This document shows, one piece after another, positions 11,899 through 54,720 of a stretch of 57,235 bases of DNA. The stretch covers positions 268,673 through 325,907 of the forward strand of contig NW_004797660.1 in assembly GCF_000002075.1 (NCBI RefSeq). Direction: 5' to 3'. The translations under genes were made by a program, and so were the position numbers. Every line of letters begins with the position of its first letter. Within the stretch, counting starts at the first letter, position 1. A model generated the notes under the pieces. It saw nothing but the letters and a program-made list of their open reading frames with translations, had not been told where the DNA came from and ran no database searches. The DNA comes from Aplysia californica. Its lineage: Eukaryota.

Positions 11899-11920
11899 GT
11901 AATTCCACAGATGAGGGTGG

Positions 11921-12431: not shown

Positions 12432-12436
12432 TTTTC

Positions 12437-14349: not shown

Positions 14350-14645
14350 TGTAACTGTGCCTGAACTGCTACAGGGGAACTGCTTCTTTTTCTTTCCTAA
14401 TCCTTACTATCTTCATTTTCCTCTACTTCTTTTGTATGTTTGTCACACTCTTGTGACCCCGCTATTTCCGGGGTGCCATTATAGTCGAAGCAGACTTTTG
14501 GGCTGTTGAAGCTAGAGAGGTGAGCAGAGTAAGCCTGATTCCCTGTGAAGACTTCTCTATTGACACCCACCCCTTGGCAATCATATGACCTTGTGCAGTT
14601 GCTAGTGCCATAAAAACTCTACTAAAAATCTTACTAAAGCTAAAA
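14350..14645 (+). mobile_element. Dispersed retroposon fragment; second copy at 19282-19522
   Basis: Near-identical GTCGAAGCAGACTTT...GAGCAGAGTAAGCCTGATTC block; ends in the shared TGACCTTGTGCAGTTGC tail. Confidence 0.75.
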
Positions 14646-14679
14646 AACTGTGTCAATGTGCATCTCTTTATACAAATAT

Positions 14680-15003
14680 ACCACGATTGCCTAGTGGTTA
14701 GGCTCTCAGACTCGCAACCGTACGGTCATGGGTTCGAATCCCGTCAGGGACCCGGCGTTGTGGTCTTGGGAAAGGCACTTTACTCAAATTTTCCTCACTT
14801 CACCCAGGTGAGAATGCGTACCCAGCTATAGACAGCGAAAGATGCTGTCAGTTTGTAAGTGTTTAAGCGCTTAATCAGCTGCTTAACCTGTATGCTTCCC
14901 GGAAAGCTGAGAATGTTTCTGAATGTTCTATGGTCTGTTGGAGTAATAATATAGCGTTTAGTGCACAGAGCTTGCTGCACACCGGGGGTATGGGCTATAC
15001 ACA
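14680..15003 (+). mobile_element. tRNA-derived SINE with CORE-like central domain
   Basis: A box TGCCTAGTGG, B box GGTTCGAATCC, then GGTCTTGGGAAAGGCACTTTAC...CACCCAGGTG; the tail is repeated at ~40003-40100. Confidence 0.8.
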
Positions 15004-15358
15004 NNNNNNNNNNNNNNNNNNNNNNNNNNNNNNNNNNNNNNNNNNNNNNNNNNNNNNNNNNNNNNNNNNNNNNNNNNNNNNNNNNNNNNNNNNNNNNNNN
15101 NNNNNNNNNNNNNNNNNNNNNNNNNNNNNNNNNNNNNNNNNNNNNNNNNNTTATTATTATGATCATGATTATGATTATTATGATGATGATTTTATTATTA
15201 TTATTGTTATTATGATTATGGTTGTAANNNNNNNNNNNNNNNNNNNNNNNNNNNNNNNNNNNNNNNNNNNNNNNNNNNNNNNNNNNNNNNNNNNNNNNNN
15301 NNNNNNNNNNNNNNNNNNNNNNNNNNNNNNNNNNNNNNNNNNNNNNNNNNNNNNNNNN

Positions 15359-15499
15359 CTTTTTGAGTGTGAGGCTGACCTGGACTGTCCGAGCCTGTGG
15401 CAAGACCACAGCGAGAATCCGTACCTGCAGGAGAAATGTCGCATCAACATCCTCCGAGAGGCCGACTATATTGTGCCGGGCCATGGAGCTATGTTTCAC
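15359..15499 (+). CDS. MBLAC1: MBLAC1 coding exon 5 (start hidden in the N gap; ...ADYIVPGHGAMFH)
   Basis: LFECEAD and IVPGHG motifs; GTAAAT donor at 15500. Confidence 0.9.
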
Positions 15500-16739
15500 G
15501 TAAATCTATTTCTTCCTGATTCATTTTATGTTGATAGGTTTATGTTTATATAATCCTTGTTACTGGTTTCTTGCAAATATAAAACAGACGAAAAAGTCTT
15601 TTGATAATAAATGATGAGAGAATACATACAAGTGGGTGTGCAGTGCTTTTATATAATTTGCTGTTTATTCAGACTCCTGCAGATTTTTATTGAGATCAAC
15701 TTCGGCAAGGGTTTTCAAACCCTCCCAGCCCCATGCGCATATATTTTCAGCAGCACGTGTACCTCCCACCATCCCAAGAGCATATATTCTCAGTTTGGGG
15801 GGGGTTTCAGATTTGTGCATTTTTTTAAATTAACAAACCTAATTAAACTTTAACATTCATAATATTTGTTCATTTACCCTTTAACATTGTTATATGTTAC
15901 TATCTAAACCTCTTTATAAAGATACTACATCACTTTTCAGAATGCCTGCCTCTTTTTCTGAAATACTGCTGTATTGGCTGGGACTGGGGTTAGGGAGTGC
16001 ATAAAAATGGCTGGGCCTGGAAGGGTTGACAAAGAAAATTTACCTGTTTCTTCCAATTACATTGTTGAAAGATAACACGATCAATATGCTCTATGTGGAC
16101 AAAGGCATTTTCAAACAAATTCAATCATTTTGTGTTTTGTTCACCTTTTTAGCTACAGTTTTACAAATGCAGTGAATTACTCTTGACAGTGTCATGTCAT
16201 TGCTTGTAAATGTACAGACGGTACATCAAAATCCATTCTGAATTTGATAGACTCTCAGTAGAAAGGGATGAGGACTGTGTCAAAAAAGTTGAGTGCCTTT
16301 GATCTCTTAGACACTCCTTTCAGATTGTTCTGGCCCTGTAACATAAATATTGCCAAAGAGAAACATGTGGTGATGAGTCAGTATGTATAACTCTTTTAAC
16401 TCGCTGACTGCTAATACCAACACTGCATCGATGGGCTTCAACATATGAGAGATGCCGAATCCACACCCCCGTCGGTTTCCCAGAAATCAGTGTTGGCTGT
16501 AAGAACATGCACACACTGGCAACAAAAGGGTTGAATGATCTAACAGTGTGTCAATGGAGGCCTAAAACATTTACGATTGAATAAATATTCTTTAAATTAT
16601 AAACGGATTACAATTTATTGTTGCGCAATGGCTATTTCTTAATTTATTTCTACTTAGTCTGGAACTTCTTACATTCGTTTCCTCGTGCTGAGCTTTGTTT
16701 CAATATCGTTTGTTTTTCTGTCTCACCCCTTGGACTCAG

Positions 16740-16856
16740 GTCCCGAAAGAGAGCAAGAAACAGCTTCGAGTTGTCATGTTGAGTGAGGAATTCTTCAGCT
16801 GTGGGGAGACTGTGTCTGCGACCAAGTCAGAGTGTATCATTGTGGAGACAGATTAA
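16740..16856 (+). CDS. MBLAC1: Probable MBLAC1 terminal exon (VPKESKKQLRVVMLSEEF...ETD*)
   Basis: Pyrimidine tract plus CAG ending at 16739; phase 0; 39 open codons ending TAA; AATAAA at 17386 and 17422. Confidence 0.7.
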   Translation, partial: VPKESKKQLRVVMLSEEFFSCGETVSATKSECIIVETD

Positions 16857-26464: not shown

Positions 26465-28905
26465 TCTCCCCCCGAAGTTATTGTCTAAATTATGGTTGAT
26501 CATCTATTTTAAATAAGAGTGTCGTCAGGCACTGTCAGGTTACCGTGTCGAAGACGGTACGTGTTGACCCTGGGCTCTTGTGTTGTAGTAGTTGTAGTCG
26601 GCTCTGGGGTAGCCACGAGATGACTTCTGTTGCGGCGGACAGTGCTCCCTTTTTCAGCTGTCACTGTGTAGGAGCGCGGATTGGGGCGTCTGTTGTTAAC
26701 GATGCCCGGTCGGCTTAGGTCTCGAATATGGACAGAATCACCGGGATTAAGTTCTAGAAGAGATTTGACACCGTGTCTCTTGTTGTATAGCAAACGCATG
26801 ATCTCTTTCCTCTTCTCCTCCCTTAGACGAATAGAGAGTAGATCAACAGAAATTGGATGTAAGTTGTCCTGCATAATGGACACTTTGGTTTGGAGTTTCC
26901 TTCCCACGAGGAGCTCACTTGGGGCATACCCGTTTTGTAAAGGAGTAGCCCGGTATAGAAGGAGGGCAGTGTATTGATAGTTGGCTTTCTTGAGGAAAAG
27001 CTTCACTGTTTACGCTGCTCTTTCTGCCTCACCATTGCTCTGGGGATATCTTGGAGAGCTGGTGATGTGAATGAAACCAAACGCTTTTGAAAAAGCTTGG
27101 AAACTGCCGCTTGAAAACTGAGAGCCATTGTCGGACACGACTGCCTCTGGGATGCCATGAGTGTCAAAGGTGGACTTGAGTTTATTGATAACGAATACAT
27201 GTACGCTGTTGAGCTTTTCGAATAAGCGTAGCTCTACCCAACAAGAGTAATAGTGGACCACGACGATGTAGGTCTGACCTTTCAGGTCAAACAGATCCAT
27301 GGCCAATCGAGACCAAGGTCGGTCTGGTGACGAGGAAGGGAGTAGAGGTTCCTTCTGGACTGGACGAAGTTTTGCACAAGTGTTGCTCTTCTTCACCATG
27401 TCCTCGATCTGACTGGTGATGTTGGGCCACCAGACTCAAGTTTGAGCTAGAGCTCGGCACTTCGTGATGCCAAGATGGCTTTCGTGGAGTCGATTCAGAG
27501 TGTCTATTTTCGTGGAATGACAAGTCGGTCGTCAAACAAAAGGATATCACCCACAATGCTGAAATGATGGTGATTAGTCCAGTACTGTTTCATAAGTAAA
27601 TGTTCAGGCATGTATGCTGGCCAGCCTCTGGCACAGTATTTCTGGACTTCCGACGTTTCTGGGTCGCTCTTCTGCTGGGAGACAATATTTTGACGTCTCT
27701 GTGGTGAAGCAGGGAGGCCGTCAATAGCATGTTGTGCGAAGTCAGCCACTTCGTCAACAGAGAGTGATTCTGCATCTGAAGGCAGATTTGTCGGAGCACG
27801 ACAAAGTGCGTCAGCTGTGATCTGATGCTTTCCCGGAACATGCAGCATATTTGGTGAAAAGCGCATCAGCCTCAGACGGAATCGTTGAATCCTTGGTGGC
27901 ATTTTGTGGAGTTCCTTGGTAGAGAGAAGAAGGACCAAGGGTTTGTGATCAGTCTCCAATGTATACTGCTTGTATGCTAACAGGTCTGCAAGAACCACCA
28001 TCTTGTATTTGTAGAAGTACTGCCCCGAGGGAAGACATGGAAGCATCTGTAGCAACGATAGTCTCCCGGTCAGGCGAGTAGTGTGCCAGTATATGTGTTG
28101 TGGTGAGGCCATTTTTGGTGCTTTGAAAAAGATGCCTCTTGATGTTCTCTCCAGGTCCACAATGAGTCTTTGTTTAGCAATGCTCGCATAGGTTCAGCTG
28201 CAGAAGCCAAGTTGGGATGTAATTTTGCTGTCTGGTTCACTATACCCACAAAGCCTTGTAACCCAGGGACGTTCTTGGGCTGAGGGAAGTTTCGAACAGC
28301 GTCCACTTTTGCAGGATCTCACTTGAGGCCTGGGTAATTGTTCACGATGTGCCCGAGAAACTTGATGGACGGCTGCGAAAATTCACACTTGTATCCTTAG
28401 TTCTCTGGAGACGCTTCAGGACTTGTCTGACACGCTTATTGTGAGTGTCCTGATCAAGCGCGTGTATGAGAATGTCATCTATGTGACAAATGACACCTGG
28501 AAGGCCGTCCAGAATGTAACGTTTTCCTTTGGAAGATTTCTGGGGCTGAGGATATGTCGAATGGAAAACGGTTAAAGCAGAATCTCCCAAACGGTGTTAT
28601 GAAGATAGTGTACCTTCTGGAGTCTGGAGCGAGAGGGATTTTCCAGAATCAGCTAGTCGTATCCAGCTCAGAGAATACATGTACCGTAGACCCTGCAAGC
28701 TTGGCAAGCTGTTCGTCTATGGGTGCCAGAGGATGGACTTCTCATCGCACTGCCTTGTTTAGACTGGTGAGGTCCACGTAGATTCTAACAGCCGTTTATC
28801 TTTGGCACAACTACCATGCTGGAACACCATTCAGTGGGCTCCGTTACGGGTGCATTTCGGTGTTGGCTTTTGGCAGTAGAGAGTGTGCGACTTTTCGTGC
28901 TGTGT
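26275..28905 (-). mobile_element. Decayed, 5'-truncated Ty3/Gypsy element (pol plus 3' LTR)
   Basis: RT (GVICHIDDILI), RNase H (ETDHKPL, RIQRFRLRL), integrase (VSDNGSQF, SPRYPQSNGEAERA), PPT and LTR. Confidence 0.93.
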
Positions 28906-30042: not shown

Positions 30043-31719
30043 GTAAGTGAAATCTCTGAAATCCTTGTGACAAGTGAGACGAAGTTAGGTCTAGAATCTA
30101 CACGCTCTTCTAGACTCTAGACACTACAAGTCTAGATTCTAGATCCAGATCTAATATATAGATCTAGACTGAAGTCCTAGAACTGGGCGGTCAAAGAATG
30201 TGCTTGATGTGGCGGCAGTCACTAGACTAGAGACACACTCCCTGCCTTAAAGTCCAACAGTAGGTTCAGTTTGGCATTGTATGAGGCTCGGCGCAAGGGG
30301 AAGGTATACCGTGACTTCTGTTGAAGTGACTCTGATTCCACTCGCTGACTGGAGCTGCAGTGTGCTCCTTCTTGCTTTGGCGATCTTGTAGTTCCGTTTG
30401 TTAAAGACCACGATCCATTTGTTTACACCCAGAGTCCAGAGAATTAATCCAGAAGTCTTGATGACCAAATATAAGGCAACTCAAAGAACCTAATTGCAAA
30501 ACATCAAATTATGGTAAAATTCAACGAACGAAACAACAAAATCACCCTTTTTTTAACTATGGTCGTTTCCGCTCCTGAGGTCCCTCATATCTTCGCAATG
30601 ATCTTCAACACAGATCAAGAATCTTCAGATAGCAATCTACTGCCTCTGTTGGTATACCATATATAAATATAGTCTTCAACATATATAGTCTTCAACCATG
30701 AACCTGTTTGGGCCTATGAGTCCTACTGTAACCCACGCATTCTGTGTGCGCAGGTTTCAGTCAACAACGTTGTCTTGTCTTTCAGACCTACAGTGAGACT
30801 GTTGGGCTCAATCTGCGAAGCCAGAAGTCGGCACTGAAGGTATCATACAAAACATGCGCATTCAAAAATGAAAACTTAGCTTAGATGTACCTGCTCTGTA
30901 GCCTACTTTAAAAAAAAGAGGGATCAGAAACAGGATTATGTCTTGTCAAATACAAAAGCGAATTAGACAGTTTCATCAGTGGCAGTAATCCAAACGGCTC
31001 AGGAAGAAGAAACAATGGTGATCTTAAAGTACTGTTGGAGACCAAACACTGCGCAGCATGATCTCTACTGACGATCTTTGATTGTATGACTTAGTGTTGA
31101 TGTCATTTATTATTTTTAGCAGCGGGGTTTCGTTTTGTCCAAGACAACCCAAAATTTATAAAAAGAGGAGCCCTGTGTGCCTTGCGTTACATGTGTTCAA
31201 CTGTCAGAAATACTTACATCTTGATCGTATTGTCTTGAAAGAAGAAAAGCTTGGGAGCACAACGATACTAAACATATTATGGTGACATGGAGACACATAT
31301 GATGGTTCTTGTCATGTTCCAATTATGGGCTAATTTGAAGAAAACACGCCAACTTTTGAGAAGGGTGCCCTCCGGAAAATGTCTGTAACAGTGAATTTTG
31401 TCTTTTTTAAAATGAAACATCAAGCGATATCGATTCTGTAGACATTCAAGTACCCAAAAATGGACAGAGTAAAAAATCAAATTTTGACCTAAACATCGTG
31501 TTTTGCAGACCCGTGTCATGCCTTAAGATGATTCCAATAACTCCATATGCCCCAAAATTGACGAGCGTCTGATTCCACCGCGTCGTGACACATATCTCAA
31601 AAATTCAAAAACCTCTGTGTTCAGCATTGAATGTCCTATTAGGTACTAGTTCTAACCCTTAATTCGAAATGGTTAAAATCCGACTTTTGGTACATTTCTT
31701 TAGGCACACACACGTATAT

Positions 31720-33109: not shown

Positions 33110-33482
33110 ATGAGTTTTAGCTATCCGGTAGAATTTGTAGAAGAGTTGTTAGATTTTGAAGATTATTATTCTTGCTGGAGTTTCTCTGAAAGTTCTGACT
33201 CGATGGCAGAGAGTGGAGACTGTTGGGCTCAATCTGCGGAGCCAGAAGTCGGCACCAAAGCTCCAACTTTGAGCTTCAGTCCTAGGATTCCGGATCTTTT
33301 TCCCAGTCGGCATTTGACTGACTTGAGCCGATGGCCACTGTTCAGCGTCCTTGATTTGGACTTGATCTCCACCATTAAAAAAATCTGCGTGTTTGGGAGT
33401 GCGGGCAACGAAGCTGTCTTCATCACCGAAAATGACGATGTCTTTGCTTTTGGCTCTAACTGCAGTAGCTGCCTTGGTTTAG
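33110..33482 (+). CDS. RCBTB1: RCBTB1/2 first coding exon (start ATG 33110 or 33203)
   Basis: DLSRWPLFSVL...ICVFGSAGNEAVFITENDDVFAFGSNCSSCLGLG matches the RCBTB1 N-terminus; donor GTAAGC at 33483. Confidence 0.88.
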
Positions 33483-33681
33483 GTAAGCTCTTTTCCTTGA
33501 TATCTACTCTTCTTGTCGTCTACTTTTTCTCCACCCCCTCCTCCTTCTCCTCTTCCTCCTCCTTCTCCTCCTCATCCTCATCCTCTTCCTAATCCTCCTC
33601 AATTGCCAGGTCTGAAACAGACATCAGCAGTCATGGTTCGCCACCCGGTTCTTTGCTAGGATGCTCTCATAAAGCTATATA

Positions 33682-33919
33682 TGTGAGATGTGCTGACAAA
33701 ATGAGTTACTTCTAACGATCCAAGAATGGAGATATCGGCTGAAAATCGACACTGGGGTCAGATTTATAAATTTTCAATTGATGCCATTTTGTTCAAGTTT
33801 ACTGTGTCTTTTACTATTCCATGCTCATAAACTGTACAAACTTCAGCTATCAAGTTGATGTGTCAATTTCCATAAGGCTGAAATCCGAGAAGTAACTCAT
33901 TTTGTCAGCACACCTCACA
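33682..33919. mobile_element. 238-bp MITE with ~32-bp TIR, TGTGA...TCACA ends and TATA flanks
   Basis: TGTGAGATGTGCTGACAAAATGAGTTACTTCT / AGAAGTAACTCATTTTGTCAGCACACCTCACA. Confidence 0.85.
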
Positions 33920-34734
33920 TATATATTGTCCTTGTCTTTCCCTTCACCCATCTTTTTCCAGTTTTCTAAGTTGGTTGCTCTGCTGCCTCTGCCTTCAGTT
34001 TTAATAATGGACAACAACATGTTCAAGGCTAACTACTCACAACCTTTTGAAATCTCAATTTTTGTTGTCTTCATATTAATGTCATTGGTATTTCAGGTCT
34101 TGTTAACATGCGTTTTGCTGTGGTTTCTGACCTCTCTCTCTCTATATTTCTCTGCGCCCTAAAGTAAACCTTCAGAAGAAATAGTCAAATAGTCTCATCT
34201 GTTAAACTATATAGTTCTCATGACATAGATCTCTCCTTTAATGTATCATTTTGGACATCCTCCCAGTCCCTAATTATTAAAGGACTAAAACATGAAATGG
34301 CAAATGCAATAATTAATCTGATTTCCATATTATATTTTATAAACCCCCCACTTTTTCTGTNNNNNNNNNNNNNNNNNNNNNNNNNNNNNNNNNNNNNNNN
34401 NNNNNNNNNNNNNNNNNNNNNNNNNNNNNNNNNNNNNNNNNNNNNNNNNNNNNNNNNNNNNNNNNNNNNNNNNNNNNNNNNNNNNNNNNNNNNNNNNNNN
34501 NNNNNNNNNNNNNNNNNNNNNNNNNNNNNNNNNNNNNNNNNNNNNNNNNNNNNNNNNNNNNNNNNNNNNNNNNNNNNNNNNNNNNNNNNNNNNNNNNNNN
34601 NNNNNNNNNNNNNNNNNNNNNNNNNNNNNNNNNNNNNNNNNNNNNNNNNNNNNNNNNNNNNNNNNNNNNTTTATCATCATCTATTACAATGACCCTAAAC
34701 ATGTTCTCCCTCCCCCCCTCTGCCCACCCCACAG

Positions 34735-34842
34735 GAGACACGCACAGTAGCTTTGAGCCTCGAAAGATTGACATTCTCTGTCGGAAGAAAGTTGTGGACA
34801 TCGCGTTCGGAAGCGGACCTCATGTTGTTGCTGTGACCAGAG
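34735..34842 (+). CDS. RCBTB1: RCBTB1/2 exon (FGSGPHVVAVT)
   Basis: GSGPHV motif; AG/GT bounded, phase 1-1. Confidence 0.93.
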
Positions 34843-35957
34843 GTAAAAAAATGTGTAGCAACACCACACACATGGGTCATGTGTTGTTCTCAGCTGTTTC
34901 AAGATACGTCGGGCACAACCTTGATTTTTCTCACAACTGTCTGCTTTTGACTCCCCAAACTTCCAAGCTATTGTAACCAAAACAGCTACACTATTATATA
35001 TATATATTATCTATATATATATTACGTTACTTGTAGGTAGGTGGTTGGCGGGTGGTCTGGTGTGATTTGCTCCTTCTTTCCTATCAAATATATATATTAT
35101 CCTTTAAATTTCTCACCCTGCTTTCATGTGTTTGTTACTCTCTTGTAACATCTCTAATCTTTAGTATTTATATGGCCTAATTGTGTTGCAAATGCTGTAA
35201 AACTGCTGTAAAACAGAAAAAAAAAAAAATACTTGTAGGACTTGGAACAAATTTTTTAATTGATACTCAAAGTGTTATATTTTTGTCAAAATAGGATACA
35301 CAACTCAATGGATCAATAAATCGTCATGGTGTTTGCACCATTGTGTAAGTTATTGTTTGTTGCTTTGAGAAAAGTTCTATCATAGGTACTTATCAAGTCA
35401 GCCTTATGACGTTTAACAAAACGGAAAATGTGTCAATAATTGAATTTTTAGTACATTAAACAAAACCCTGTTGTATTGAGGATACGAAACAAGTAATATC
35501 TTTTCACCGTATCAATAACTCTGTAGGCCTACCTGAAAAAAAAAGTCTCAGGTAGTAGTAGCATTAAGACGGTGATAAAATGCTTTTTTTTTACACATTT
35601 TGTCAGAGCCGCAATTGTCACACCATTTTAATCAACATTTTTTACACATATGACACTTGAGTAGACTTGGTCCACGGTATACACGGTAAACAATGACAGA
35701 AACTGTACCATGTAAATTCCTCCCCCCCACCCTTCCCCATCTCCCCCCATCCTCTCTCCTCTGCTCCTCCTCCCCTCTGCTCCTCCTCCCCTCCCTTCCC
35801 CATCTCCCCCCATCCTCTCCCCTCTGCTCCTCCTCCCCCAACTCCTTCTACACTCCCTCCACCCCTCCCCTATATTATAATTATGACACTCGGCAAGCTG
35901 CCCACCTGTGGAAGATGACCGCTTTTATCCTCAACAATGATTTCGGGAAAGTTCATT

Positions 35958-36395
35958 TGTGTCACGACGCGGTGGAATTAGGGGCTCGTCAATTTTTGGG
36001 CGTGTGGAGTTTTTGGTATTGCCTTAAAGCATGTTCATTTGCCTTGCTGTAGATAAAAGAATTACCTGTTTATCTTGAGTACATGTCGAGGTATTTGCGC
36101 TATTGAATGAGATGGGTGTCACTTGGTTTCAGAGATAAAATTAGTCACAAAATGGCTGCCAAAGTTTGGTTATTTACAAAGCCTCAGAGTCCGTGGAAAG
36201 TGACAATTTTCATTGTCTGTGCCTTTAATCAACATTTTTCAATATAATTCACACTGAAATGGGTTCCTCAATAGACATAGAAGGTGTTAAGTCGAAAAAC
36301 AAAATTTCAATAAAAATTGCCAAACCAGCGGAAAAGTGCCAGTTTTTTTACTTTCATTATTTTGGGAGCGCCTGATTTCACCACGCTGTCTCACA
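35958..36395 (-). mobile_element. TGTGA...TCACA MITE copy
   Basis: Both TIRs present; reverse orientation relative to 54721-55162. Confidence 0.8.
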
Positions 36396-36520
36396 TTTGT
36401 ATTTCCGTCTGTATTCATGTGACTTGATAAGATTTTATATGTATTTACGTGTAACTAGATATAACTCTATTTGCACATTAAGCTTTGGTATTGCATATTT
36501 TTCTGATGCACCTGACTTGA

Positions 36521-36892
<372 letters not shown>

Positions 36893-38061
36893 TGATTCTA
36901 GCTTGGATCCACATATCCATGTTTAGAATAAAGGATATAGTATAACATTGACTTCCGGGTCAAACGTTTTTATCGAAAATTCTACCTTTTGTATTCAAGT
37001 TTTAAAACCCGATTTCGAAGTTTATACGACTTTGTTTTATGGTTATACCCAAATTATAACCCAGATACCAGTCTTAGCACTTTTACAAAACAAAGTGTAT
37101 CATTATTTTGCTTACTTAAGAAATGTATGACTCTTCTTTAGAATATTGATACTATATTTGTAAAATGGACTCAAATTGCCATTGCTCTGTTATTGAGTAA
37201 TCGATATTTTTCAGTGCTAGATCTAAATTGTCAAAATATTTTTTTTCTCCCCCAAATCTCTAATTTTTAGTAAAATTACACAAAAAATACTACTCAAGAA
37301 ACATGTAGTTTATTCAAAATGCAATTTTGAATGATTCCATATAAGATAATTGTGAATTTTCGGGATTTTGTTCAAAAATTTTATTTTTTCAATATCGAAT
37401 GTTTTGATTCAAATGTACAAATTATGTGGAATGTATGTAAAGAAATGCAAAATTTTCAATATTTTCCAGTTTTATTTTCATTTATGGTTATTTTGTTATG
37501 TATCGTATGACTAGATCTAGGTGCAAACATATTTTTTGACTTTCACCAAAGATGATTAATTTTGAATTTTCAAATTTCATCCACATCCATGCAAAATTGT
37601 GTTGCGCAGTCGCCTCTAATAGGAACCAAAGTTGAAAACTATACAAATAAGCAATACAGATGTATTCTACAAATCATACTGAAAATTTTGGTAGCCTGTA
37701 TAATAATGTTGATATTTATTTGAATTTGTGGCCCCAGAGACCTGTGAATTGCGCTCTAGTCATCATCTCAAACAAACAAAATGCTTTGCTAAATGACAGT
37801 TATTGAATCGATGTGTTTGTCTTTACTCCAACAAATGAAGAGCACTAGGTGGGTAGTTTGCGAGTGCTCTGGTGTGGTTTGCTCCTTCTTTCCTATCAAA
37901 CAACTCTCGTCTTTGTCTCTCCTCCTTCTTTTTTATGTTTGTTTCTCTCTTGTAACACCTCTATTCTTCTGGCGCTCATATGACCTTATGCAGTTGCACT
38001 TACTAAAACTAAAAACTAAACTTACTCAAACAAATGAAGAGTGCTTGTGCTGAAGTTGTGA

Positions 38062-38265
<204 letters not shown>

Positions 38266-38700
38266 TGATATTTTACTTGTAAAGTGGGTGGTTGAAGGGC
38301 GCCACTGGTAGGTTGTGCTTTAAAAATACCATAATAATGATAATGCAAAAAATTTCTGTGTCTCGCTATTCTCACCCCCCCTCAGGTTTGCTAACAGTAG
38401 GCCTATGGCTATATCCTATAGGACAGACACACTCAGAACAGCACTGAGAATAACTTATAAGTTGTAGAGATAAGTTTCAGGTTTAGTTTATTTAATGGGC
38501 TGGGTAAAGTTTTCGACACTTATATTACCTAACTGTGGGTGATTGGTGGGTGCTCTGGTGTGGTTTGCTCCTTCTTTCCTATCAAACTTCTATCGTCCTG
38601 ATCTCCCCTCCTTCTTTTTTGTGTTTATTATTCGCTTGTAACACCTAATTTTCGGCACTTACATGACCTTATTGTGTTGCAAGTGCTGTAAAACTCTTTC

Positions 38701-38852
38701 CTAACACTTTGCAGTCACACAGCCAGCAGTACAAAATACCCCATCTGGTCACCCAACCAGGAGAGTGACTGCAACAGACTTCTCGGGCCAGGTTTCCAGA
38801 ACGGATAATTTTCACCAGCGCATTATTGAGTCAAGTGACTGCAAAGTGTTAA
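38701..38852. mobile_element. ~150-bp MITE; related copy at ~32550-32723
   Basis: TAACACTTTGCAGTCAC ... GTGACTGCAAAGTGTTA inverted ends. Confidence 0.75.
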
Positions 38853-38906
38853 GCACCCCCCGCCCCCCCCTCCCCCCTTACCTCAAACTACATACTTTCC
38901 CTGCAG

Positions 38907-38958
38907 GTGCTCTGTGCGCTGTTTCCATCGCCTGTGGTCAGACATCCTCTGTAGCCCT
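38907..38958 (+). CDS. RCBTB1: RCBTB1/2 exon (SIACGQTSSVAL), end hidden in the N gap
   Basis: IACGQTSS motif; acceptor CTGCAG ending at 38906. Confidence 0.9.
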
Positions 38959-39333
38959 NNNNNNNNNNNNNNNNNNNNNNNNNNNNNNNNNNNNNNNNNN
39001 NNNNNNNNNNNNNNNNNNNNNNNNNNNNNNNNNNNNNNNNNNNNNNNNNNNNNNNNNNNNNNNNNNNNNNNNNNNNNNNNNNNNNNNNNNNNNNNNNNNN
39101 NNATGTGGTTGGTTAGCGGATGCTCTGGTGTGGTTTGCTTCTTCTTTCCTATCAAACATCTATCGTCCAATCTCCCCTTCTTCTCTTTTGTGTTTGTAAC
39201 TCTCTTCAGCACTTATTTGACCTTGTTGTGTTGCAAGTGCCGCAAAACTTTTACTAAAACTAAACTAAATAAATAAATAAATAAATACGTAAATAAAGAA
39301 ATTAATTAATAAAGAAATAAATGAATAAATATA

Positions 39334-39632
39334 TAGATCTTTCCAACCAGAAGATCAGGAGTGTGGCTGAAAGACGGCTGAAAGGAGCCAAGGTGTAGCA
39401 GTAGCAAGGCTGCTGAAAGAGCCAGGAGCCCAGAGGAGGGGGCAAAGGAGGTGAGGGGGTCAGGGCAGAAAGTGGAGACGAAAGCAGATGACAGAACATT
39501 GCTAGAGAGCAGGAAAGGAGGAGAAAGGAGACTGTTTTAGAGAAGAAAATTTTCCCGTCACTACCTGGATTGGAACCTGGGACCTTTGAATGAGAGGCGA
39601 GAACCTTAACCTCTAGGCCACGAGAGCCCCCC
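39334..39632 (-). mobile_element. tRNA(Glu-like) SINE, 3' truncated
   Basis: Matches 12137-12431. Confidence 0.85.
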
Positions 39633-39779
39633 TGAAAATAAATAGATAAATGTCGCTTGCAGAAAAATAAACCCGTCAATGAATAACTACATAAATACCA
39701 TTTTTACTGATCTCCATGAGAAATTATGGGTTACAAAATAATTTGGCAAGTACAATATATATGACCATGCATTCTATAA

Positions 39780-41226
<1,447 letters not shown>

Positions 41227-41380
41227 GTGGTGTAATAGAAATGATTTGAGAGTAGAAGAATGTGGACCTGTAAATTTCAGCATAGTGGTAATGAGAAATA
41301 GTGTGCAGATCATAAGAGAGATGTGGGAGACGTAGAAATGTCATCTGTAAAAAAAATTTAATTGTAAAAAAGGAAAAAAT

Positions 41381-41819
41381 TGTGTCGCAACGCGGTGGAA
41401 TCAGACGCTCGCCAATTTTTGGGCATATAGAGTTATTAGTATTATCATAAAACTTGTCCATTTTTCTTGCATTTGGCGAAAGAAAATACCCACCTATCTT
41501 GAATGAAGTCAAAATGTTTGCGATTGAAGGAGGTTGGGGTCGCTTGGTATGTGAGGTAAAATTAGCGAGAAAATGGCTGCCAAAGTTTGGCAACTTCCAA
41601 AGCTGTAGTGTCGTTGGAAACTCGAAATATACATTTGTTGTGCCTTCAATGAACGTTTTTCGGTAACATCCACACAGAAATGTGTTTTTAAAAGGATGTA
41701 AAATGTGTTGAGTCGAAAAAAGAAATGTTAAAAAAAAAATTACCCAGCGTCCAGAAAAGTGCCTATTTCTTTGATTTAATTGTTTCGAGGAGCGTCAGAT
41801 TTCACCATGCTGCCTCACA
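41381..41819 (-). mobile_element. TGTGA...TCACA MITE copy
   Basis: Both TIRs present. Confidence 0.8.
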
Positions 41820-42339
41820 ATTACTATTTTACTTCTCTTTTGATGCAATGCAGGTCATTTGGGGAGGCAGGATGCTTTTTGTCCTGTAGGGTTGAGTCTG
41901 GTTGAGTGGGATGCGCTATCATTGTGGACATATGAAGATACTGGATAAGTAACTTTCTTCCTGGAGAATTGAACTCATGTCAAGGGACGCTCATGGTGGA
42001 GAGGTTACTGTGTCCGCCTCTGATTCAATAGGTCCCGGGTTCAAATCTGGATAGCGACGGAAAATTTTCTTCTCTAAAATGTTCTTCTTTCCCCTTCTTT
42101 TCTGCTCTCTAACAATGTTTTGTTGTCTGCTTTCGTCTCAACATTCTGCTGATTACAGCAGCCTTTCTGCTACCACTCCTTGGCTCTTTCTTACTGTTGT
42201 CTTTCTGTCATACCTTTGATCTTATGATAGGTAAGATCGAATGCCTAGCCTTATCAGATAAGGGTGAAAAATCTCCTGCTACCTTCCCTTTCTCTCCTCT
42301 CCTGCTCCATTCCCCTGCCCCCCTTGTAAATCTTCCTAA

Positions 42340-42624
<285 letters not shown>

Positions 42625-44374
42625 TAAGATTGGTTAATACAGTGGCATCTGCTTAAACCAAAATCTGCGGAAATGCAGGTTTTACAGTTTAGAGACAGCT
42701 TATCACCCCAATATTCATACCAACATTGTGCAACCAGTGCAAAAGGTGGATCGAGGGTGTCGAGGAAACCCTGAGAAAACATAATAAATAATATCACAAC
42801 TGAAAGAGCTGCGGAGCTGGCCTACCATAGAAAACTGCATCTCCCCTTGACGTTTAACAGCAACAGAGGATGAAAAAGTAAAAGTAAAGTAAGAGTTTTT
42901 GGTAAAAAATTGGGAAATTTCTTTTCTTTAAGTTTGCTGCTGTCTTGAGATTAAAAGTGTGTGGTTTAACACTTTTCACCCACCCAGTGCGCACAGTGCA
43001 CGACCTTTGTCCCTGGGCATCAGGAGGCAGATGGGCTACATCACTACTTTATTGTATCTCTGCAAAAATACCCCAGTCATGATGACATTTTAGGCGCACT
43101 GAGAAAATTGAATGTGGTAATTGCATGTTCACCAAAAAAGGAATTAAAAACTTAAGGTCTAGCACATTCTCACCCAAATTCTCATCATGTCGTCGGTGTA
43201 AAGCAGCACCCATGTCATGTCTACTGGACATAAAAATTTTTTTTTTTACTCCAATTGTTGTAAACAATCTGATTTTCGCTCTCAAAGGGCACACAAATCA
43301 TTCAGAACAGAAAGGAAATTATAACTAACTAGTGCACATGTCTTAAAGGAGATCCTTCCTACAAACATTTAATGTTTTTGTTACTATATCACACCATGGC
43401 TGATCGGTGTTCTGTGGGGGCAAAGTGTTAGGCTGACTCCACTGAAATTTGTCGCTTTCAAGGACAAGCGGGCTAACCCAGACTTCGGGGGTTTCCAGAA
43501 ATCTTGACCATCTTGACCTACACCAAAAGTGGGCATTGCCCTACCTGTAGGAGAAGTTTAGTTTCATTGGTGTGTATATTTGTTTGATTATAGTAAAAAC
43601 TCTCCTTGTCTTTTAAAGAAACTGAACAAGGGGGCAAAAACTTTTCCTTCTATTTTCTCAATACAGCATTTTTCGGGACAGCCCCCTTGTGCTTAAAAGC
43701 GACCAATTGTAACTGCAAATGCAGAGACAAAAATAGAAATGGGCTGGTCACATTAATGAAAAGAAGGGTAACGGATGAACGAAAAGATGCACTGAATGGA
43801 GACCAAAAAGAGGAAAATGATCAAGAGGAACAGAATGATGGTTGCGAGGGAATTTCAAAGAGTGGATGGGTACAATCACAGTTGAGGAAAGTGGAGGTAG
43901 TCGTTTTGAGGGTTGAATCCTGCAGTGGGCGGACAATGCATAAAAAGGAAGTAATTCAAGAGCACAGAAGGAAAATGGCCCTTGTAGATAAATACTAAAT
44001 TTTATTTGAGAAGGATGTAGTAACATACTGGTGACGTATTTTATCTTTATCTGAAAGGGCGGGTAAACCCCCTATGCCAGGGCCCTGTTTTGGTACAAAA
44101 TCTAAAAATGACAAATCCGTCACATGGTTGGTCATTAAATGAAAACAATCTAGCCTAATAAATGAACTCCCAGTAAAAGGGACCTGTTTTCGGTAATTGC
44201 TAAAATGTAATTTGATTTCAAAGTTGTCATAAAGGAATGTTCACGAGCTGCTGCCAGCAGCTCACTTGTATGGCAGTTTTGACTGCGAGCCGCTTGGAGC
44301 AGTTTACCGGAGATAAGGAGTTAAAAGAGTCGTGTATAGAATGAACGGCATTATTATATGTGTAAATGTTAATG

Positions 44375-44533
44375 GATGTTTGAGGGTAAAGAAGGAGCCA
44401 GCCCCAGCAGAGCCCCCGCCAGCCACCCACACAGATGTCTGACAGTAAAGAAGAAGCCCCCCCCAGCAGAGCCCCTGCCAGCCACCCATACAGATGTCTG
44501 ACAGTAAAGAAGAAGCCCCCGCCAGCCACCCAC
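44375..44533 (-). repeat. Three tandem ~45-60-bp copies of the dispersed retroposon 5' end, starting at the PRPF8 donor GT
   Basis: Minus strand (G/A)TGGGTGGCTGGC...CTTCTTTAC...A(G/A)ACATC repeated three times. Confidence 0.8.
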
Positions 44534-44915
44534 CTGAGCGCGCAGGTCGGAGATGATGATGAACTTCTTGAGGACGTTCTTGGGCAGGATGTAGGTGTAG
44601 CCTGTCTCCTTGATGTCGTCTGAGCTGACGTAGATGTGGTTGGTGCGGAGGTGAAGGTTGGTGGCCGAGATGGCTCGCACACGCCACTCCGTCTTGGAGG
44701 AGAAGGTGGCGGTCTCGTGGTTGGAGGTGGTGGTTGTGATGATCTCGTCGCCGTGCTTGTTGACCGTGCGCGTGGTGGTGGCCGTCATCTGAGACTGCTC
44801 CTTGGTCTGCTTCTCGATCTCCGCGATCTGCTGCCGCTGGGCGCTTGGGGCTGAGATCTCCATGCCTAGGATGATGTCCCTTGTCTCCGACTGGGTCAGG
44901 GACTTCACGTTCACG
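44534..44915 (-). CDS. PRPF8: PRPF8 exon (end of RNase H-like domain, linker, start of Jab1/MPN)
   Basis: [25 protein letters not shown]...[12 protein letters not shown]...SDLRAQ; AG/GT bounded, phase 2-0. Identity is certain; whether it is functional is not. Confidence 0.92.
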
Positions 44916-45220
44916 CTGGGGGGGAGAGGAAACACAGGAATGAGCAGCGCTGGTGCTTGTAGGATTAGTCTGTGTTTTACGGCACTTGCAACACAATTAG
45001 GTCATACAAGTGCTGAAGATTTGGTGGTACAAGAGAGTAACCAACACAAAAAAGGAGGAGAGATAAAGACAAGACATGTTTGATAGGGAAGGAGCAGACC
45101 AGCTCAGCGCACCCAATTTCTGGTGATTTCCAGATCCCGCGGTTATTTGAGTCAAGACATCAAGGGGCATTTTGCACTACAGCTCATCTTATTTCCTTTC
45201 AGTGTGTGTGTGTGTGTGTG

Positions 45221-45790
45221 ACTGACTTGTTCTTCTAGCCATAGTCGGCCCTCCTCTCTCTATCTCTCGTTCTCTCCCTCCTACACAAAGCACACTCAAT
45301 GTAAAGAGTCAACAAAGAAGACAAAAGCTCTCGTTGACGACATGACTGACTTGTTCTTCTAGCCGTGGTCGGCCCTATACCTTGTATTTTGTATCACTCT
45401 ATGTACAGAGACAAACAAAAGATGTGACTGACTTGTTCTCCTTGACATAGTCGGCCCTATACCTTGTGTATCTCTCTATGTAAAGAGACAAACAAAAGAT
45501 GTAACTGACTTGTTCTCCTTGACATAGTCGGCCCTATACCTTGTGTATCTCTCTATGTACAGAGACAAACAAAAGATGTGACTGACTTGTTCTCCTTGAC
45601 ATAGTCGGCCCTATACATAGTACTTTGTATCTCTCTATGTACAGAGACAAACAAAAGATGTGACTGACTGGTTCTCCTTGACATAGTCGGCCCTATACCT
45701 TGTGTATCACTCTATGTAAAGAGGCAAAAAGAAGACAACTGACAACAAGCTATAGACATAACTGACTTGTTCTTCTTGCCGTAGTCGGCC
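45221..45790 (-). repeat. Tandem array (77-124 bp spacing) reiterating the last 24 nt of the PRPF8 exon plus its donor
   Basis: ACTGACT(T/G)GTTCT...GTCGGCC at 45221, 45345, 45427, 45504, 45581, 45663 and the true junction at 45761. Confidence 0.92.
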
Positions 45791-45960
45791 AGGATGAGGT
45801 CCTTGAGCTGCACCTCAATCTTCATCCACTCCTCGTCCGAGAGCGTGGGCCAGATGTGGTGGGCCTCGGTCACCGTCGTCTTGTCCGGCTTGAGCAGGAT
45901 CTTGGTCTTGTCGTTGTTCACGTGCAGGGCGCGCAGGATCAGGATCAGACGGGAGAACGC
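45767..45960 (-). CDS. PRPF8: PRPF8 exon ([15 protein letters not shown]...[10 protein letters not shown])
   Basis: Unmistakable PRPF8 peptide; AG at 45962-45961, GT at 45766-45765, phase 0-2. Confidence 0.92.
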
Positions 45961-46633
45961 CTNNNNNNNNNNNNNNNNNNNNNNNNNNNNNNNNNNNNNN
46001 NNNNNNNNNNNNNNNNNNNNNNNNNNNNNNNNNNNNNNNNNNNNNNNNNNNNNNNNNNNNNNNNNNNNNNNNNNNNNNNNNNNNNNGACATAACCACCCA
46101 CCTTGAGTTTTGAGACTAGCAAGACATTGGTGTCAGGGCCGACAGTAAAATAAATGGGTTATAATGCCATTCCTAAATCGGCTGGACACTGAGTGAAATC
46201 TTTTTGTAGGTGTACGAATTTCAGGATTATCTTTGAATTCCAGTCTATATCAAGGGAGATAAAAAGCAAGTTGGACAGCACTGTTAAAATCTTACATGAT
46301 TGATTGATACATGTACTACTACCACACCCTATGCTACGTTTTGCAGACTTAGTATTCAGTATGTTCAGGTTTTTAACATTTTATCCACCTCTGCTGGGAA
46401 CAGCAATTTTTCCTTGATCAACAAAGCTCCTCTCTGCTTCTTTTGATCCGCCAGTATCCCCTCTCTCCGACGACTTCACCTCAACCTGTCACTGCAGAAT
46501 ACATGACGTACTGGCAAGCTATCGTGTAGAGAGTAGTGGGACAATGGGGTTTTGACTGTATGCTGCAGGGGAGCATTGCGCAGTTCAGGGCATGCTTTTT
46601 GATAATTAATGAATGGCCCAAAACACGGATCTC

Positions 46634-48534
46634 CATAGCTGCCAAGTTTTCAAAATTAAAAAACAGACTTTCATCGCAGTCGGAGAAAGAGACCAGTTCT
46701 TACTTCAAAAAGATACCAAAAGACAACTTGTACTCAAATGATAAGCCCACCACAGACACATGCATGCTGTGCAGCCAGATTGATAAGATGGCAAAGATGT
46801 CTGGCTGGGACTCCCTAAGCTTTGTTATAACTCCATTGTTTTGTCCTATCATCACTGGAGCATTGTCTGAACTCAGAGAGGTGCAGTGCATAAAGGGAAC
46901 ACCAAAGGTTTCTAATTCTCTCAATACAAGTTCTCCTATGTTAACACCACTTGACGGACCATTGTCATTGAGGACGTCGGCACACCTTGTTTGTAGAAAG
47001 CATGTTTGTTTGATAACTTCGATGCAGTGATGAAGTTGAATTCCTCTGAATACTTGGCACAGAAGGTGTGTTCGCGAGGTTTTGCCTTACAACTGGTTGG
47101 TTTTAAAAACGCATCCATCACTTGAAAGCACAACGCGCGTCCGTGATCAAAGAAATAGTTTTAGCTCCTGCATGCAATCATCACTAAGGCTGCCCGCAAC
47201 ACCCACACACACACACGATGACCCGTGACCCGATGTGAACGAAGGAGAAACAAAGAAGACCCGTAGGCAGACCTGCCACTCAATGAAATCTAAAAATCAG
47301 GATTTTAGAGTAAGAAAATCAGGATCTAGAGTCTAGATCTAGTGAAAAAAATCGGGGTCAACGGCAAATCAGTCATAAGCGGCACTGGGGGAAAGGGGGT
47401 GGGGGTGGTCCCGGTTCTTTATGAGGCAAGTATGCAAGACAAAGCTTTTTGAAAACTGAAAGACAGCATTATTATATGTTACTCGAATCGGAGTTGGATA
47501 GACTGGGGGAGCGCAGGTAGCACTAAAGCTGAAACTCTCGTAGTCTTGAAAATAGCTGACACATAACTCCTATTATCCAGGGGAAAAGTCCGCTTTTTCG
47601 TACAGTAACAACGTTTGACTTCCATCGCATATATACACTCAAGGTACCCCCACCCCCTCCCCGGAAAAAATCGCGCCAAGGTTTTTCATTTATTTTTTTC
47701 TTATTATTCCTTTCCCCTCAATTAGTCTGGATCACGGCACGCACTTTAAGCCCAAGTGTCAAAAAATACCCCCCCCCCCCACTGGTTAAAAGTCCCGGAA
47801 AACACCTCGATCATTGCGACCGGTGTGAATGAACTTTGTTGACCCCGACAGCCGACGGTCTCAGACACACGCGCTACTCACCACACGTACGAGGTCAGCG
47901 AAAGTAGATCTTGAGCGTATTCAAGTGGGAATTCAAAATTGATACTACTACGTCGATTTTAGTAGAAATAACGAGCGTGAGTCAACTACTAGATTCGGCA
48001 TAGATCTAGATGCTTTAGAAAATAGCGTTCCAAGTTCCAGCGGATAAAAAGTCCAATCGGTGCTTCCAAGCAAAAGAGATTGCAGAACTTTTTATATTTT
48101 TTTCTAAGAATCGGACGCAACAGACACAACGACAAAAAAAAAATCAGGATACTGGCGATCGAAATCGGGAAAATCGGGATGCTTGAGATTTGGGGCAAAA
48201 AAAAATAAAATCGTGATGAGTGGCAGGTCTGCGTAGGTTACTTCCCGCTTTAATAGCGCATGCTCAATAACAAAGAAATACAGAAGGGGCACCACTCGCG
48301 GAAGGAGGTCAACTTCCAGTTTAATTGCAGGGACACTACTCTCGTCGTCTTGTTGACTCCCGTACTTCGCCTATCCGGTCATAAATTTTCTAATTTTTCT
48401 TGCTTGAAGCCAGTTTGTATTGAAACTAAGAGGAGAAAAGTTGAAAACGTATTTTCCAATGCCAAAACGGATTTCCGTACTCAAACCAAAAAATCGTACT
48501 AAATACGTATTTTACGTACTACTTGGCAGCTATG
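46634..48534 (-). mobile_element. Defective hAT-like DNA transposon with 6-bp TSD
   Basis: TIR CATAGCTGCCAAGT / ACTTGGCAGCTATG, TSD GATCTC on both sides, transposase remnant SSDNAPVMIGQNNGVITKL (ORF 46700-46924). Confidence 0.82.
47268..48231. mobile_element. Nested non-autonomous element with 6-bp TSD
   Basis: TIR CAGACCTGCCACTCA / TGAGTGGCAGGTCTG, TSD CGTAGG. Confidence 0.85.
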
Positions 48535-50849: not shown

Positions 50850-52900
50850 GCCTGACCTATAAATTTGAAGTTGAAGCCTCAGAATGGAATTCAGTTGGAA
50901 ACTAAAGCAGTATCAAGATGCCAAAATTTCTGTCAGAAAACCATGAAGGAGCTACAGTATTGGTCGACTACATGCTGGAGAGTCTGCTCTACATATGGCA
51001 ACTGTTATAGGCGTGCATGTCTCCATCGTACACAGAATCAAGCCACCATAACAGCCATCAGATCTCCCCCGAGCGGAAGACCAAAGGCAACAACTGCAGC
51101 TCAGTATCTCTTCATGGTGCGCCAAATCCAATACCGGATGAACACCTTCCTGAAAAAGGGGAACATCATCGGATGAACGGGACAAGGGAGTAGTACCAGA
51201 ACTGTACTGTATGACGGAGATTGCACTCCACATGCCTCTGGTACATGTACAGAGGTCTGAATAGCATCTGCATTTGTTGCGGACGCGATTTTTGGCATTT
51301 TTTGGTCCGCGATTGTGATTTTTGCATTTTTCAAAAAAACAAAAACAAAACCACTGCTAAGGAATAAAAATGTTTTTAAAAAAGAAAAGGAAAAAGAAAA
51401 GGAAAAGAAACCGAACCTCTTTACTTTTAGAAAGAAAGTTCATTTTCACTTCAGCTTCACTCTGTCTCTTCTTTCTCACTTGTTGACACCACGTTGATTT
51501 GAAATTATTGTTTACTTGAACAGTATACTATGAGTACATTACATACTATTTCTATTGCTGTTTCTCTTTTATTTTTCCTTCTGTTTTGTGTTTTAATTTT
51601 TTTTTAATTGTTATTTTTGTTCTGTGTTGTTTTACCATTTTTTGTTTTTATTATAGCAAAATGTCATTTAATTTGAGGTTGTTCCTACCTATATTATATA
51701 TAATAGAAAATGTGTTATGTTAGAGTGCGTCTCCACTGAAACCGCACACTGACATTGTGTATGATTTCATAATTTAAATGTAATATCTTGTAGGCCTACT
51801 TTTTCTTGAATTGCACACGTTTAGGGTTTAAACGGCCAATTTTCGGATATGTGGACACACGCACTTATTAAAATTTGTTAATTTCAGTGGTTGAGTATGT
51901 GCTGTTCTAATTTTTTTTTATTCGGTTGTGAAACCTTTATTTTTCACGTTTTTACACTCTGTGTGGCTACAAATGATATTCTGGATTCTGCACATGAAAT
52001 TGTGGTGCCTTAGATTAAGTTACCTTTATCAACAAATTGCTCTATAAGTCGTCAAAGTCAAAGAGAGATGAAAGCTTGAAAGTTAATGGCAACTTTTATG
52101 GCAATTTTTGCCATTTTTGTGGCAACTTTTGGACAAAAAAATGGCAACAAACGCAGATGCTAGGTCGGCATCACAAACCAGTTCTGACCCCTCAGCACGG
52201 CCGTGACTGGCTTCGGTGGGCACGGACTCATGTGAACTGGAGGAAAAGACCATGGAGAAGGGTGCTGTTCATCAACAAGAGCAGATTCTGCGTTGATCTG
52301 GCATATGGGCGCAACTGTGAAAACTGTGTGTAGCGCACAGACCTGATGTGCTGATGCCGACTTCATGGAGAGACTCTCGGGGATGGACACGCATCATCAT
52401 GGTTTGAGGAGTCATCACCCTCTAAAACCAAAGAATTGGACTAGCGTTCTTCCAGAACATGGGTCATGGACAAGGAAATTGGGTCACAACTCAGCACTAC
52501 ACCGTCCAAGTTCCTCAACAGTTTCATAAGTCATATGATGCCCTTTTCCCAGAAACACCCAAACATTTTGTTTCCAGTAATACCTCATATTGCCAGTGTA
52601 ACACAGCAGTTCCTGGGGCAGAACAGCATCAATCTTTTGCCACATCTGGCTCGTTCACCTGACTTAAATCCCAATGAGCACTTTTGGGACACTACATGTG
52701 TATGCTGATGCAGCTCAACTAGCTACAGCCAAGACCACAGAGAGCTCCTCAATTACTCAAGTGGCCGCAGCCTTCAGCCAGGTGTGGGTACAGATCCCAG
52801 GTCAACAAATAAACACTTTCGTGAACTCTATGGGTAGAAGATGCAGACCAGAAATTATAAATTATAATAGCAGCCAATGGAGGTCACACAGTGCTGACTT
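50850..52900 (+). pseudogene. Tc1 transposase fossil, copy B
   Basis: SGRPKATT, WRRVLFINKSRF (from VLFSDESRF) and ARSPDLNPNEHFW (from SPDLNPIEHLW). Confidence 0.88.
51262..52162. mobile_element. hAT-type MITE inserted in Tc1 copy B
   Basis: TIR TAGCATCTGC(A/G)TTTGTTGC; flanks GGTCTGAA / GGTCGGCA versus the empty site GGTCTGCA in copy A, consistent with an 8-bp TSD. Confidence 0.82.
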
Positions 52901-54720
52901 TCTGTCCCACGGTCAAAGTCATAGAAATATCATTGTGATGCTAAAACCACACTATAATAACACTAACACCCACCTATTGACAACCTTGTGGTTGTGTAAA
53001 TTAGACGAATCAAAATGTTAATTCCACATGATGAACTCTTGTTCAATGTTGAGTTTAGTGTTTTGTTCATGCTTTAGTTATTCGCATCTTTCACCTCTGA
53101 GTTTATTTGCATTGCTAAGTACACCAAACACAAGCCTGAATGTGAACATCTCATTCTGAAAAAACTTCATGCAGCTTAAAAGTTCAACAACATTATCCTT
53201 CATCTAGGGAGTTTTGTTTTTTTTTAAAGAAGAAAATCAAGTACTAAATCAAACAAAGGATAGGTAATGACTCATAACCACAAAAAATGTTTACACACGA
53301 TGTATTCACAGTACAGTGCGGCAAAGATATATGTAACACGAACACANNNNNNNNNNNNNNNNNNNNNNNNNNNNNNNNNNNNNNNNNNNNNNNNNNNNNN
53401 NNNNNNNNNNNNNNNNNNNNNNNNNNNNNNNNNNNNNNNNNNNNNNNNNNNNNNNNNNNNNNNNNNNNNNNNNNNNNACACAAGCCTGAATGTGAACATC
53501 TCATTCTGAAAAAACTTCATGCAGCTTAAAAGTTCAACAACATTATCCTTCATCTAGGGAGTTTTGTTTTTTTTTAAAGAAGAAAATCAAGTACTAAATC
53601 AAACAAAGGATAGGTAATGACTCATAACCACAAAAAATGTTTACACACGATGTATTCACAGTACAGTGCGGCAAAGATATATGTAACACGAACACAGAGA
53701 ACATGAAATCATGAATAGCTCATACAATTTGCTATTCCCTGACTGGTAGCCTATAATCTCTCTTTAATTTTCCATTCAGTTAACCTGAATTTTGGACATG
53801 TCAAACCTGAATTTTGGACATGTCAAACACATTTTAATCCCTGATGTGTTTGAGTTAGAGCTATATCCGTGCCTGACTGTATGATGTATCAAAAGTTAAC
53901 TTTACTAACAACTCATAATCACTCAGCACTCTTTCAAAAACTCAAATATTTTCAATATATTGCATTCTATCAAACACTCACTCAATATTTTCAACATTAT
54001 TCAGTTCCAGTACCGGTACATCTGATACAAAAGGAGGCAAGAGTTCAACAGTGCATGAACCTTTCCAGCACCAGAGTCTTCGAAGCTCTCAAAACAATAC
54101 ATGTAATAAAAGCAAGTCTTAGCTTCACCGAAATTAAGATTGTCTGAGATTGTCATTTTTGGAAAATGCAAATTTCCATTTTTTTGAGCCCTTGATCGTT
54201 TTTCCATAAAATCCATACAATACACAGTAGAAATGGCTATAGCGGGACTTTTGGTTCTAAAAAAAAAATCTAGCTGTAGGCAAGTTCCCGCAAAAGGGAT
54301 GCAAAGGGGAAATTACCAGAAAATTTCTAAAAATCCACATGATAACCCCCCTTCCATAACAATAAAATTTGCGCTTTAGACAAATTATTAGATTAGTTGC
54401 CCTTTTTTTGTCTACTTTGTTGATTATCTCGGCCTTTAATTTGAGTGAGAAGCAATTCCTTATGTCATGTCTTTGTTAGAAGCCATATTTTCCTCGGTCT
54501 TGTTGCTTGTGCTGTCTATCGTACCGGTAGGCCTACTGTAGAAATGGTGAAGTGGATGCATGCGTATGCCTTTAATGACTATAAGCATCAACTATCGCAA
54601 TTCAATGAATCAGGAATCACACACACGCTCTCCTCTTCTTTTACTTTTTGGCCTGGCCTAGGCCTAGATTATGGCCTAGCCTATTTTATGTAATGTGTTT
54701 TTTAATGGACATGATATATA

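Follow-up and report, generated by a model that had tools for sequence, protein, structure and literature searches.

The intron that follows one of two PRPF8 exons in the gastropod Aplysia californica opens with six copies of the end of that exon, each with its splice donor attached. We consider it very probable that this array is a junction-spanning ('mirage', F7-type) minisatellite, in which the copies are silent passengers and the first, genuine donor is the one that is used. Its first unit spans the authentic exon-intron boundary and the units that follow head to tail repeat the splice signal. The analysis covered a stretch of 57,235 nt (contig NW_004797660.1, positions 268,673 to 325,907), here called the window, and all positions below refer to it.

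Structure of the array

The exons, the array and the remainder of the intron are arranged as follows:

45767..45960, minus strand: PRPF8 exon A (64 codons encoding the PRP8 domain IV core), preceded by AG, with donor CAA/GTCAGT; starts 2 nt past an N gap (45963-46086)
45767..45790, minus strand: source 24-mer (the amplified exon end)
45221..45766, minus strand: junction-spanning minisatellite; its six units measure 77-124 nt and consist of an intron start (53-100 nt), the 24-mer and GTCAGT
45712..45714, minus strand: first in-frame TAG for any read-through from exon A to a later donor, after 18 codons
45669..45692, minus strand: copy 1, open frame, ends AACCA
45587..45610, minus strand: copy 2, open frame
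45510..45533, minus strand: copy 3, open frame
45433..45456, minus strand: copy 4, open frame
45351..45374, minus strand: copy 5, in-frame TAG
45227..45250, minus strand: copy 6, in-frame TAG, GA run before, CA run after, most diverged spacer
44957..45115, minus strand: dispersed repeat (about 150 nt) in the remainder of the array intron, with 71-82% similarity to 8 other sites in the window
44534..44915, minus strand: PRPF8 exon B, 127 codons; donor CAG/GTGGGT; acceptor ranks top of the 76 AGs scored across the intron

On the minus strand, the copies of the 24-mer start at 45692, 45610, 45533, 45456, 45374 and 45250. Each has AG immediately 5' and GTCAGT 3', and 26-28 of these 30 nt are identical to the original. 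The original prediction had described exactly this, a sixfold repetition of the last 24 nt of the exon plus GTCAGT, with AG directly before, GT after and the reading frame kept, and it holds in phase for all six copies. The phased translation also agrees with its count of four open copies, which read KADYVKEN(N/H), and two copies (45374 and 45250) with an in-frame TAG. TRF reports the array with a period of 77, 5.0 copies, 89% matches and a score of 584. The 13-nt junction occurs six times in the 1.5 kb past the exon A donor, compared to 0.04 expected from the rate in the rest of the window. The six-copy array is thereby confirmed.

From each donor to the next AG, the pieces measure 74, 58, 53, 53, 58 and 100 nt in order. 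Another 311 nt are left between the last copy and the real acceptor at 44915, and the whole intron is 851 nt long. The six bases 5' of the 24-mer match the exon at none of six positions. The AG therefore marks where the duplicated stretch of intron stops and did not arise from the CTG of the exon by mutation, as had been proposed. The pyrimidine tract noted upstream of most units does exist, except in the last copy, which has GAG and no tract; however, it stops short of the cassette AG, at a CATAG that lies 19-24 nt upstream. Three to four other AGs (nine for the last copy) fall within 30 nt upstream of the cassette AG. Since each unit carries 4-14 AGs in two or three frames and the copies come from one event, an AG in the right frame is unsurprising.

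The PRPF8 exons

The PRP8 domain IV core is recognized by PF12134 (E 1.5e-21). The boundary of exon A was set by homology and by a RefSeq model. The exon pair contains no stop and has four intact splice sites and a GC3 of 0.93, and 191 of its 192 residues are identical to PRPF8 from the land snail Candidula unifasciata (CAG5126031.1). The exons are intact, but what the window contains is two PRPF8 exons and not the gene. They cover 192 of about 2,330 PRPF8 codons, and no further PRPF8 exon was found in the 57 kb with nine longer PRPF8 proteins, partial to full-length, as queries. An upstream exon is possible beyond 11 kb or in a gap.

We also considered that the exons could belong to a decayed pseudogene. 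Three residues (T116, M148 and H171) were missing in all 220 homologues first compared, and a set of three private residues of this kind was seen in none of 39 close homologues. This reading was rejected: Candidula has all three odd residues and differs at 1 of 192 positions, and relative-rate tests were not significant (p 0.06-0.73). T, M and H (PRPF8 residues 116, 148 and 171 of P0002) are shared by Aplysia and Candidula, while nearly all other PRPF8 sequences examined, including those of Pomacea and Patella, have I/V, L and Y. The three residues thus look like heterobranch-type changes in a very conserved protein. We take Aplysia to belong to the Euopisthobranchia and Candidula to the Panpulmonata. 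The split between these two groups is given as 230 +/- 50 million years ago (PMC7931591).

The best homologue of exon B is the RefSeq protein XP_005103871.1, an Aplysia californica 'PRPF8-like' entry of 286 aa. It is composed of stretches at 52645 and 52238, exon A, exon B and a read-through into the next intron. Its N-terminal 40 residues come from Tc1-like DNA (52577-52645 and 52179-52238, minus strand), an assignment made from a weak transposase match on the opposite strand (E 0.025), and its C-terminal 54 residues come from the intron read-through. The gene model is likely spurious.

Other repeats and mobile element traces lie close to the exons. A 59-nt tandem repeat starts at the exon B donor (44375-44526), and it is 75-78% like the head of a dispersed element that recurs elsewhere in the window at several sites. 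Broken frames at 46530-47160 (minus strand), some 0.6 kb upstream of exon A, resemble a hAT-family transposase; the one frame scanned had no Pfam match. Farther away, the window carries two decayed LTR-retrotransposon-like pol remnants (435-4528, plus strand, and 26509-28600, minus strand) with stops and frame breaks in their ORF translations, and a metallo-beta-lactamase-fold gene of at least five exons (10713-16850, plus strand; Lactamase_B match, E 5e-09).

Divergence of the copies

Six distinct changes were found in the 24-mer, one of them silent and five missense or nonsense, with 12 of the 72 possible changes being silent. The copies thus appear to change neutrally, and no pattern of purifying selection on the cassette is seen, although the power of six changes is low. 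GTCAGT is intact in all six copies while the 24-mer took these six changes, but the corresponding probability, (24/30)^6 = 0.26, is not significant.

Spacers 2-5 are alike at 49/53 to 52/53 and 54/58 positions, compared to 43/58 to 56/63 for spacer 6. Inner units that are alike next to a diverged edge unit are the pattern of concerted evolution, as also described for amphioxus mirages (PMC3087553, PMC3902484). Each copy departs from the exon sequence at 2-4 of 30 nt, and between spacers up to a quarter of the positions are different. Given this divergence beside exons that are still intact, the array predates any relaxation of constraint on the exons, and it likely arose in a working PRPF8 gene. 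Since the exons show no decay, a working gene probably carries the array, and in that case selection may act on it.

Splice sites within the array

Acceptors were judged against the 11 real ones that could be placed in the window, leaving out sites in or against gaps. The matrix was built from these 11 sites only, and the real sites were scored leave-one-out among the 6,885 AGs of the window. All 11 are CAG, with 10-18 pyrimidines in 20 nt and the nearest other AG at least 17 nt away. The six cassette AGs, in contrast, are TAG or GAG, have 2-7 pyrimidines in 20 nt and follow another AG at a distance of 1-10 nt. They have neither the pyrimidine tract nor the AG-free zone of a usable 3' splice site. 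Real acceptors score at the 81st-99.9th percentile and cassette AGs at the 6th-38th. Splicing neighbouring copies together would need introns of 53-100 nt, while nine measured introns of the window are 724-2,524 nt long; the shortest introns given for Lymnaea hemocyanin are 118 bp (PMC7931591). The reading as 24-nt microexons is weak. The earlier suggestion of exon birth by junction amplification stands for the amplification of the exon-intron junction, but finds no support for microexons with such acceptors.

The true donor has a C at +3, the sole case among the 12 donors listed, and it may be weak enough to leak. Transcripts that used a later donor would meet the TAG at 45712..45714, so any poison route would go through the donors and not through microexons. 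The AG of this TAG doubles as the best cryptic acceptor in unit 1.

A second array in RCBTB1

The neighbouring gene provides a comparison case:

33110..42623, plus strand: RCBTB1 exons, residues 1-353 of 599
39957..41229, plus strand: donor-derived arrays in an RCBTB1 intron, units of about 32 nt and 36 nt

Three queries failed to locate residues 354-599 of RCBTB1 in the window, and the PRPF8 exons lie antisense to this half of the gene. Two of the 12 donors tested in the window are amplified, that of PRPF8 exon A and the RCBTB1 donor at 39957. The latter has 12 junction copies (0.0 expected), and the intron holds 25 AG/GTRAG sites compared to 0.4 expected. This donor array is larger than the one in PRPF8 and lies about 4 kb away from it. 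RCBTB1 is not known to be a splicing factor. As it nevertheless has the larger donor array, the structure in PRPF8 needs no autoregulatory explanation, and the proposed tie to the autoregulation of splicing factors is not supported.

The RCBTB1 intron arrays contain 23 GGTRAGT sites (0.21 expected) and 13 YAG/GTRAGT sites (0.07 expected). The YAG/GTRAGT sites resemble recursive splice sites but have no pyrimidine tract. Read-through stops at the fourth codon. About 45 nt of the first coding exon of RCBTB1 (33211-33258, plus strand) have a near copy 2.4 kb upstream, at 30782-30838.

Status of the locus and the assembly

The two exons could be a very young partial PRPF8 duplicate in or after an RCBTB1 intron, a reading to which we give a little more than an even chance. 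It would fit the missing further PRPF8 exons, the gap-free 1,910 nt from the last RCBTB1 exon to exon B, and the fact that RefSeq built its chimeric model at this locus. It has to be set against the lack of any decay in the exons. In addition, a misjoin could explain why RCBTB1 and PRPF8, facing each other, both break off before their 3' halves within one stretch of 1.9 kb, and why the RCBTB1 protein is found under two RefSeq accessions on two contigs. A full-length Aplysia PRPF8 was seen neither among the best 120 of 3,094 matches nor among the 105 listed members of 10 clusters, which is not evidence of absence. The alternative, a misplaced piece of the working PRPF8 gene in a draft assembly, comes close to an even chance. 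The region in question, 42624-44533, is gap-free, with the 3' halves of both RCBTB1 (plus strand) and PRPF8 (minus strand) lost, and a misjoin or a rearrangement breakpoint is possible there.

It is very improbable that the array itself is an assembly artefact. The assembly is a draft with 10 gaps in the window, one of them 2 nt from exon A, but substitutions and indels set the units apart from one another, and they do so in a nested pattern. Moreover, of the words sampled from the stretch, 0.81-0.87 are present in three samples from a single study, one other than the study behind the older DNA-type runs, whereas only 0.66 of the 1,447 distinct 31-mers do not touch the array. This places the unit sequence outside the study from which the assembly may have come, although such shares reflect the sequence of the unit and not its copy number. 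None of the matching runs was listed as RNA, and rows presumed to be RNA, with shares of 0.42-0.87, do not count here as evidence for expression. Elsewhere in the window, identical 219-nt copies (53128-53346 and 53478-53696) flank an N gap and are likely a scaffolding overlap.

Origin of the array and possible effects on splicing

The array could have started with a single tandem duplication across the donor, covering about 98 nt (24 nt of exon and 74 nt of intron), which would have set an intron AG beside the 24-mer by chance. Slippage or unequal crossing-over may then have multiplied the unit and homogenised the middle copies. The TAG would have arisen once and been inherited by copies 5 and 6. 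Going by the F7 precedent, the most upstream donor would be chosen and give a normal mRNA, and the rare use of a later donor would lead to the stop after 18 codons and to removal by nonsense-mediated decay (NMD) as noise. That the spliceosome uses the first donor only and ignores the later ones is likely, judging from precedent and from the predicted gene model. In XP_005103871.1, a predicted model that is chimeric at both ends, exon A is joined from its first donor straight to exon B.

A leaky but unregulated array is an unlikely alternative. Here, later donors, or a pseudo-exon of 43 or 48 nt starting at CATAG, would be used in a measurable fraction of transcripts, which would go to NMD. The five CATAG acceptors, placed at 45711, 45634, 45552, 45475 and 45398, reach the 80th-92nd percentile and overlap the weakest real sites; of the five exons they would create, three shift the frame, one has an in-frame stop and one is an open 16-codon insert. 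In addition, five of the six copied donors equal the true donor from -3 to +6, and extra donors are reported to be used in human 6-16 and CBS (PMC1557585). However, these candidates are TAG where all real acceptors are CAG, and for F7, LAMIN B2, PDGF and the amphioxus mirages use of the first site only is described (PMC1557585, PMC3087553, PMC3902484).

Very improbable is the model of the original prediction, in which 24-nt cassettes are spliced in or regulated poison or decoy exons feed back on the PRPF8 level. It accounts for AG, 24 nt and GT standing in phase in six copies, two of them with TAG, and strong purifying selection acts on the gene from which the exons come. For human PRPF8, an action via 5' splice-site strength is reported (PMC4578845), and SF3B1 has decoy exons (PMC6097662). 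Nevertheless, the acceptors score at or below random AGs, the spacers are far below the real introns in length, the changes among the copies look neutral with no conserved peptide, and RCBTB1 has the same structure. Decoys are furthermore described mainly from introns longer than 1 kb with highly conserved cassettes (PMC6097662), whereas this intron has 851 nt. The idea of a tunable poison or decoy array is thus not upheld. Highly doubtful, too, is a variant in which a working PRPF8 gene would carry the array behind its weak C+3 donor as a poison-donor rheostat, with spliceosome activity steering donor choice and copy number setting the loss to NMD.

Relation to known arrays and significance

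A junction-spanning minisatellite has well-described relatives. In intron 7 of human F7, the boundary lies within the first unit of a 37-bp VNTR, and splicing uses the first donor only (PMC1557585). As in F7, where there are 5-9 copies, the first unit of the Aplysia array crosses the exon-intron border and the donor is repeated downstream. F7 differs in copying 4 exon bases, whereas the PRPF8 array copies 24 and has an AG before them (PMC1557585). The same source lists PDGF and LAMIN B2, with comparable units of 81 and 100 bp and use of the first donor only, and 6-16 and CBS, in which two further donors are used.

In amphioxus, mirages are reported for the globins BflGb6 and BflGb9, Adh3, troponin C and PGBD5, with 3-6 units that are 81-100% alike and splicing that is apparently undisturbed (PMC3087553, PMC3902484). 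The PRPF8 array resembles them in its duplicated exon boundary, in AG/GT in many units and in its homogenised middle units. Exon or intron birth has already been proposed for these mirages (PMC3087553, PMC3902484). Donor choice and length polymorphism were measured for F7 (PMC1557585), and the amphioxus cases, from a cephalochordate, have RT-PCR support (PMC3087553, PMC3902484).

Boundary tandem repeats in human segmental duplications are also similar, being minisatellites at a boundary and possibly in a duplicated gene piece. They are described with new splicing patterns and novel introns in expressed paralogues (PMC2812944), and there is no sign of such for the PRPF8 array. The decoys of SF3B1 intron 4 share with it the cryptic cassettes, some leading to stops, in an intron of a core splicing factor. 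Those decoys are described as highly conserved, binding U2AF and lying mostly in retained introns longer than 1 kb (PMC6097662); the PRPF8 copies, unlike them, have poor acceptors, drift freely and lie in a shorter intron. Among the papers listed, judged by title or abstract start, we found no report of such an array in Aplysia, PRPF8 or molluscs, and none of PRPF8 autoregulation by a poison exon and NMD.

The PRPF8 array adds a gastropod to the hosts of junction-spanning minisatellites, and the window holds two examples separated by 4 kb. Annotators should be wary of junction-spanning arrays, which look like microexons, and of XP_005103871.1, in which transposon-like DNA and intron read-through are fused to two real exons. 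On the most likely reading, the array matters little beyond being one more member of the minisatellite class. If its later donors were used and regulated, it would be a feedback element made de novo by repeat expansion in the gene for a core protein of the spliceosome.
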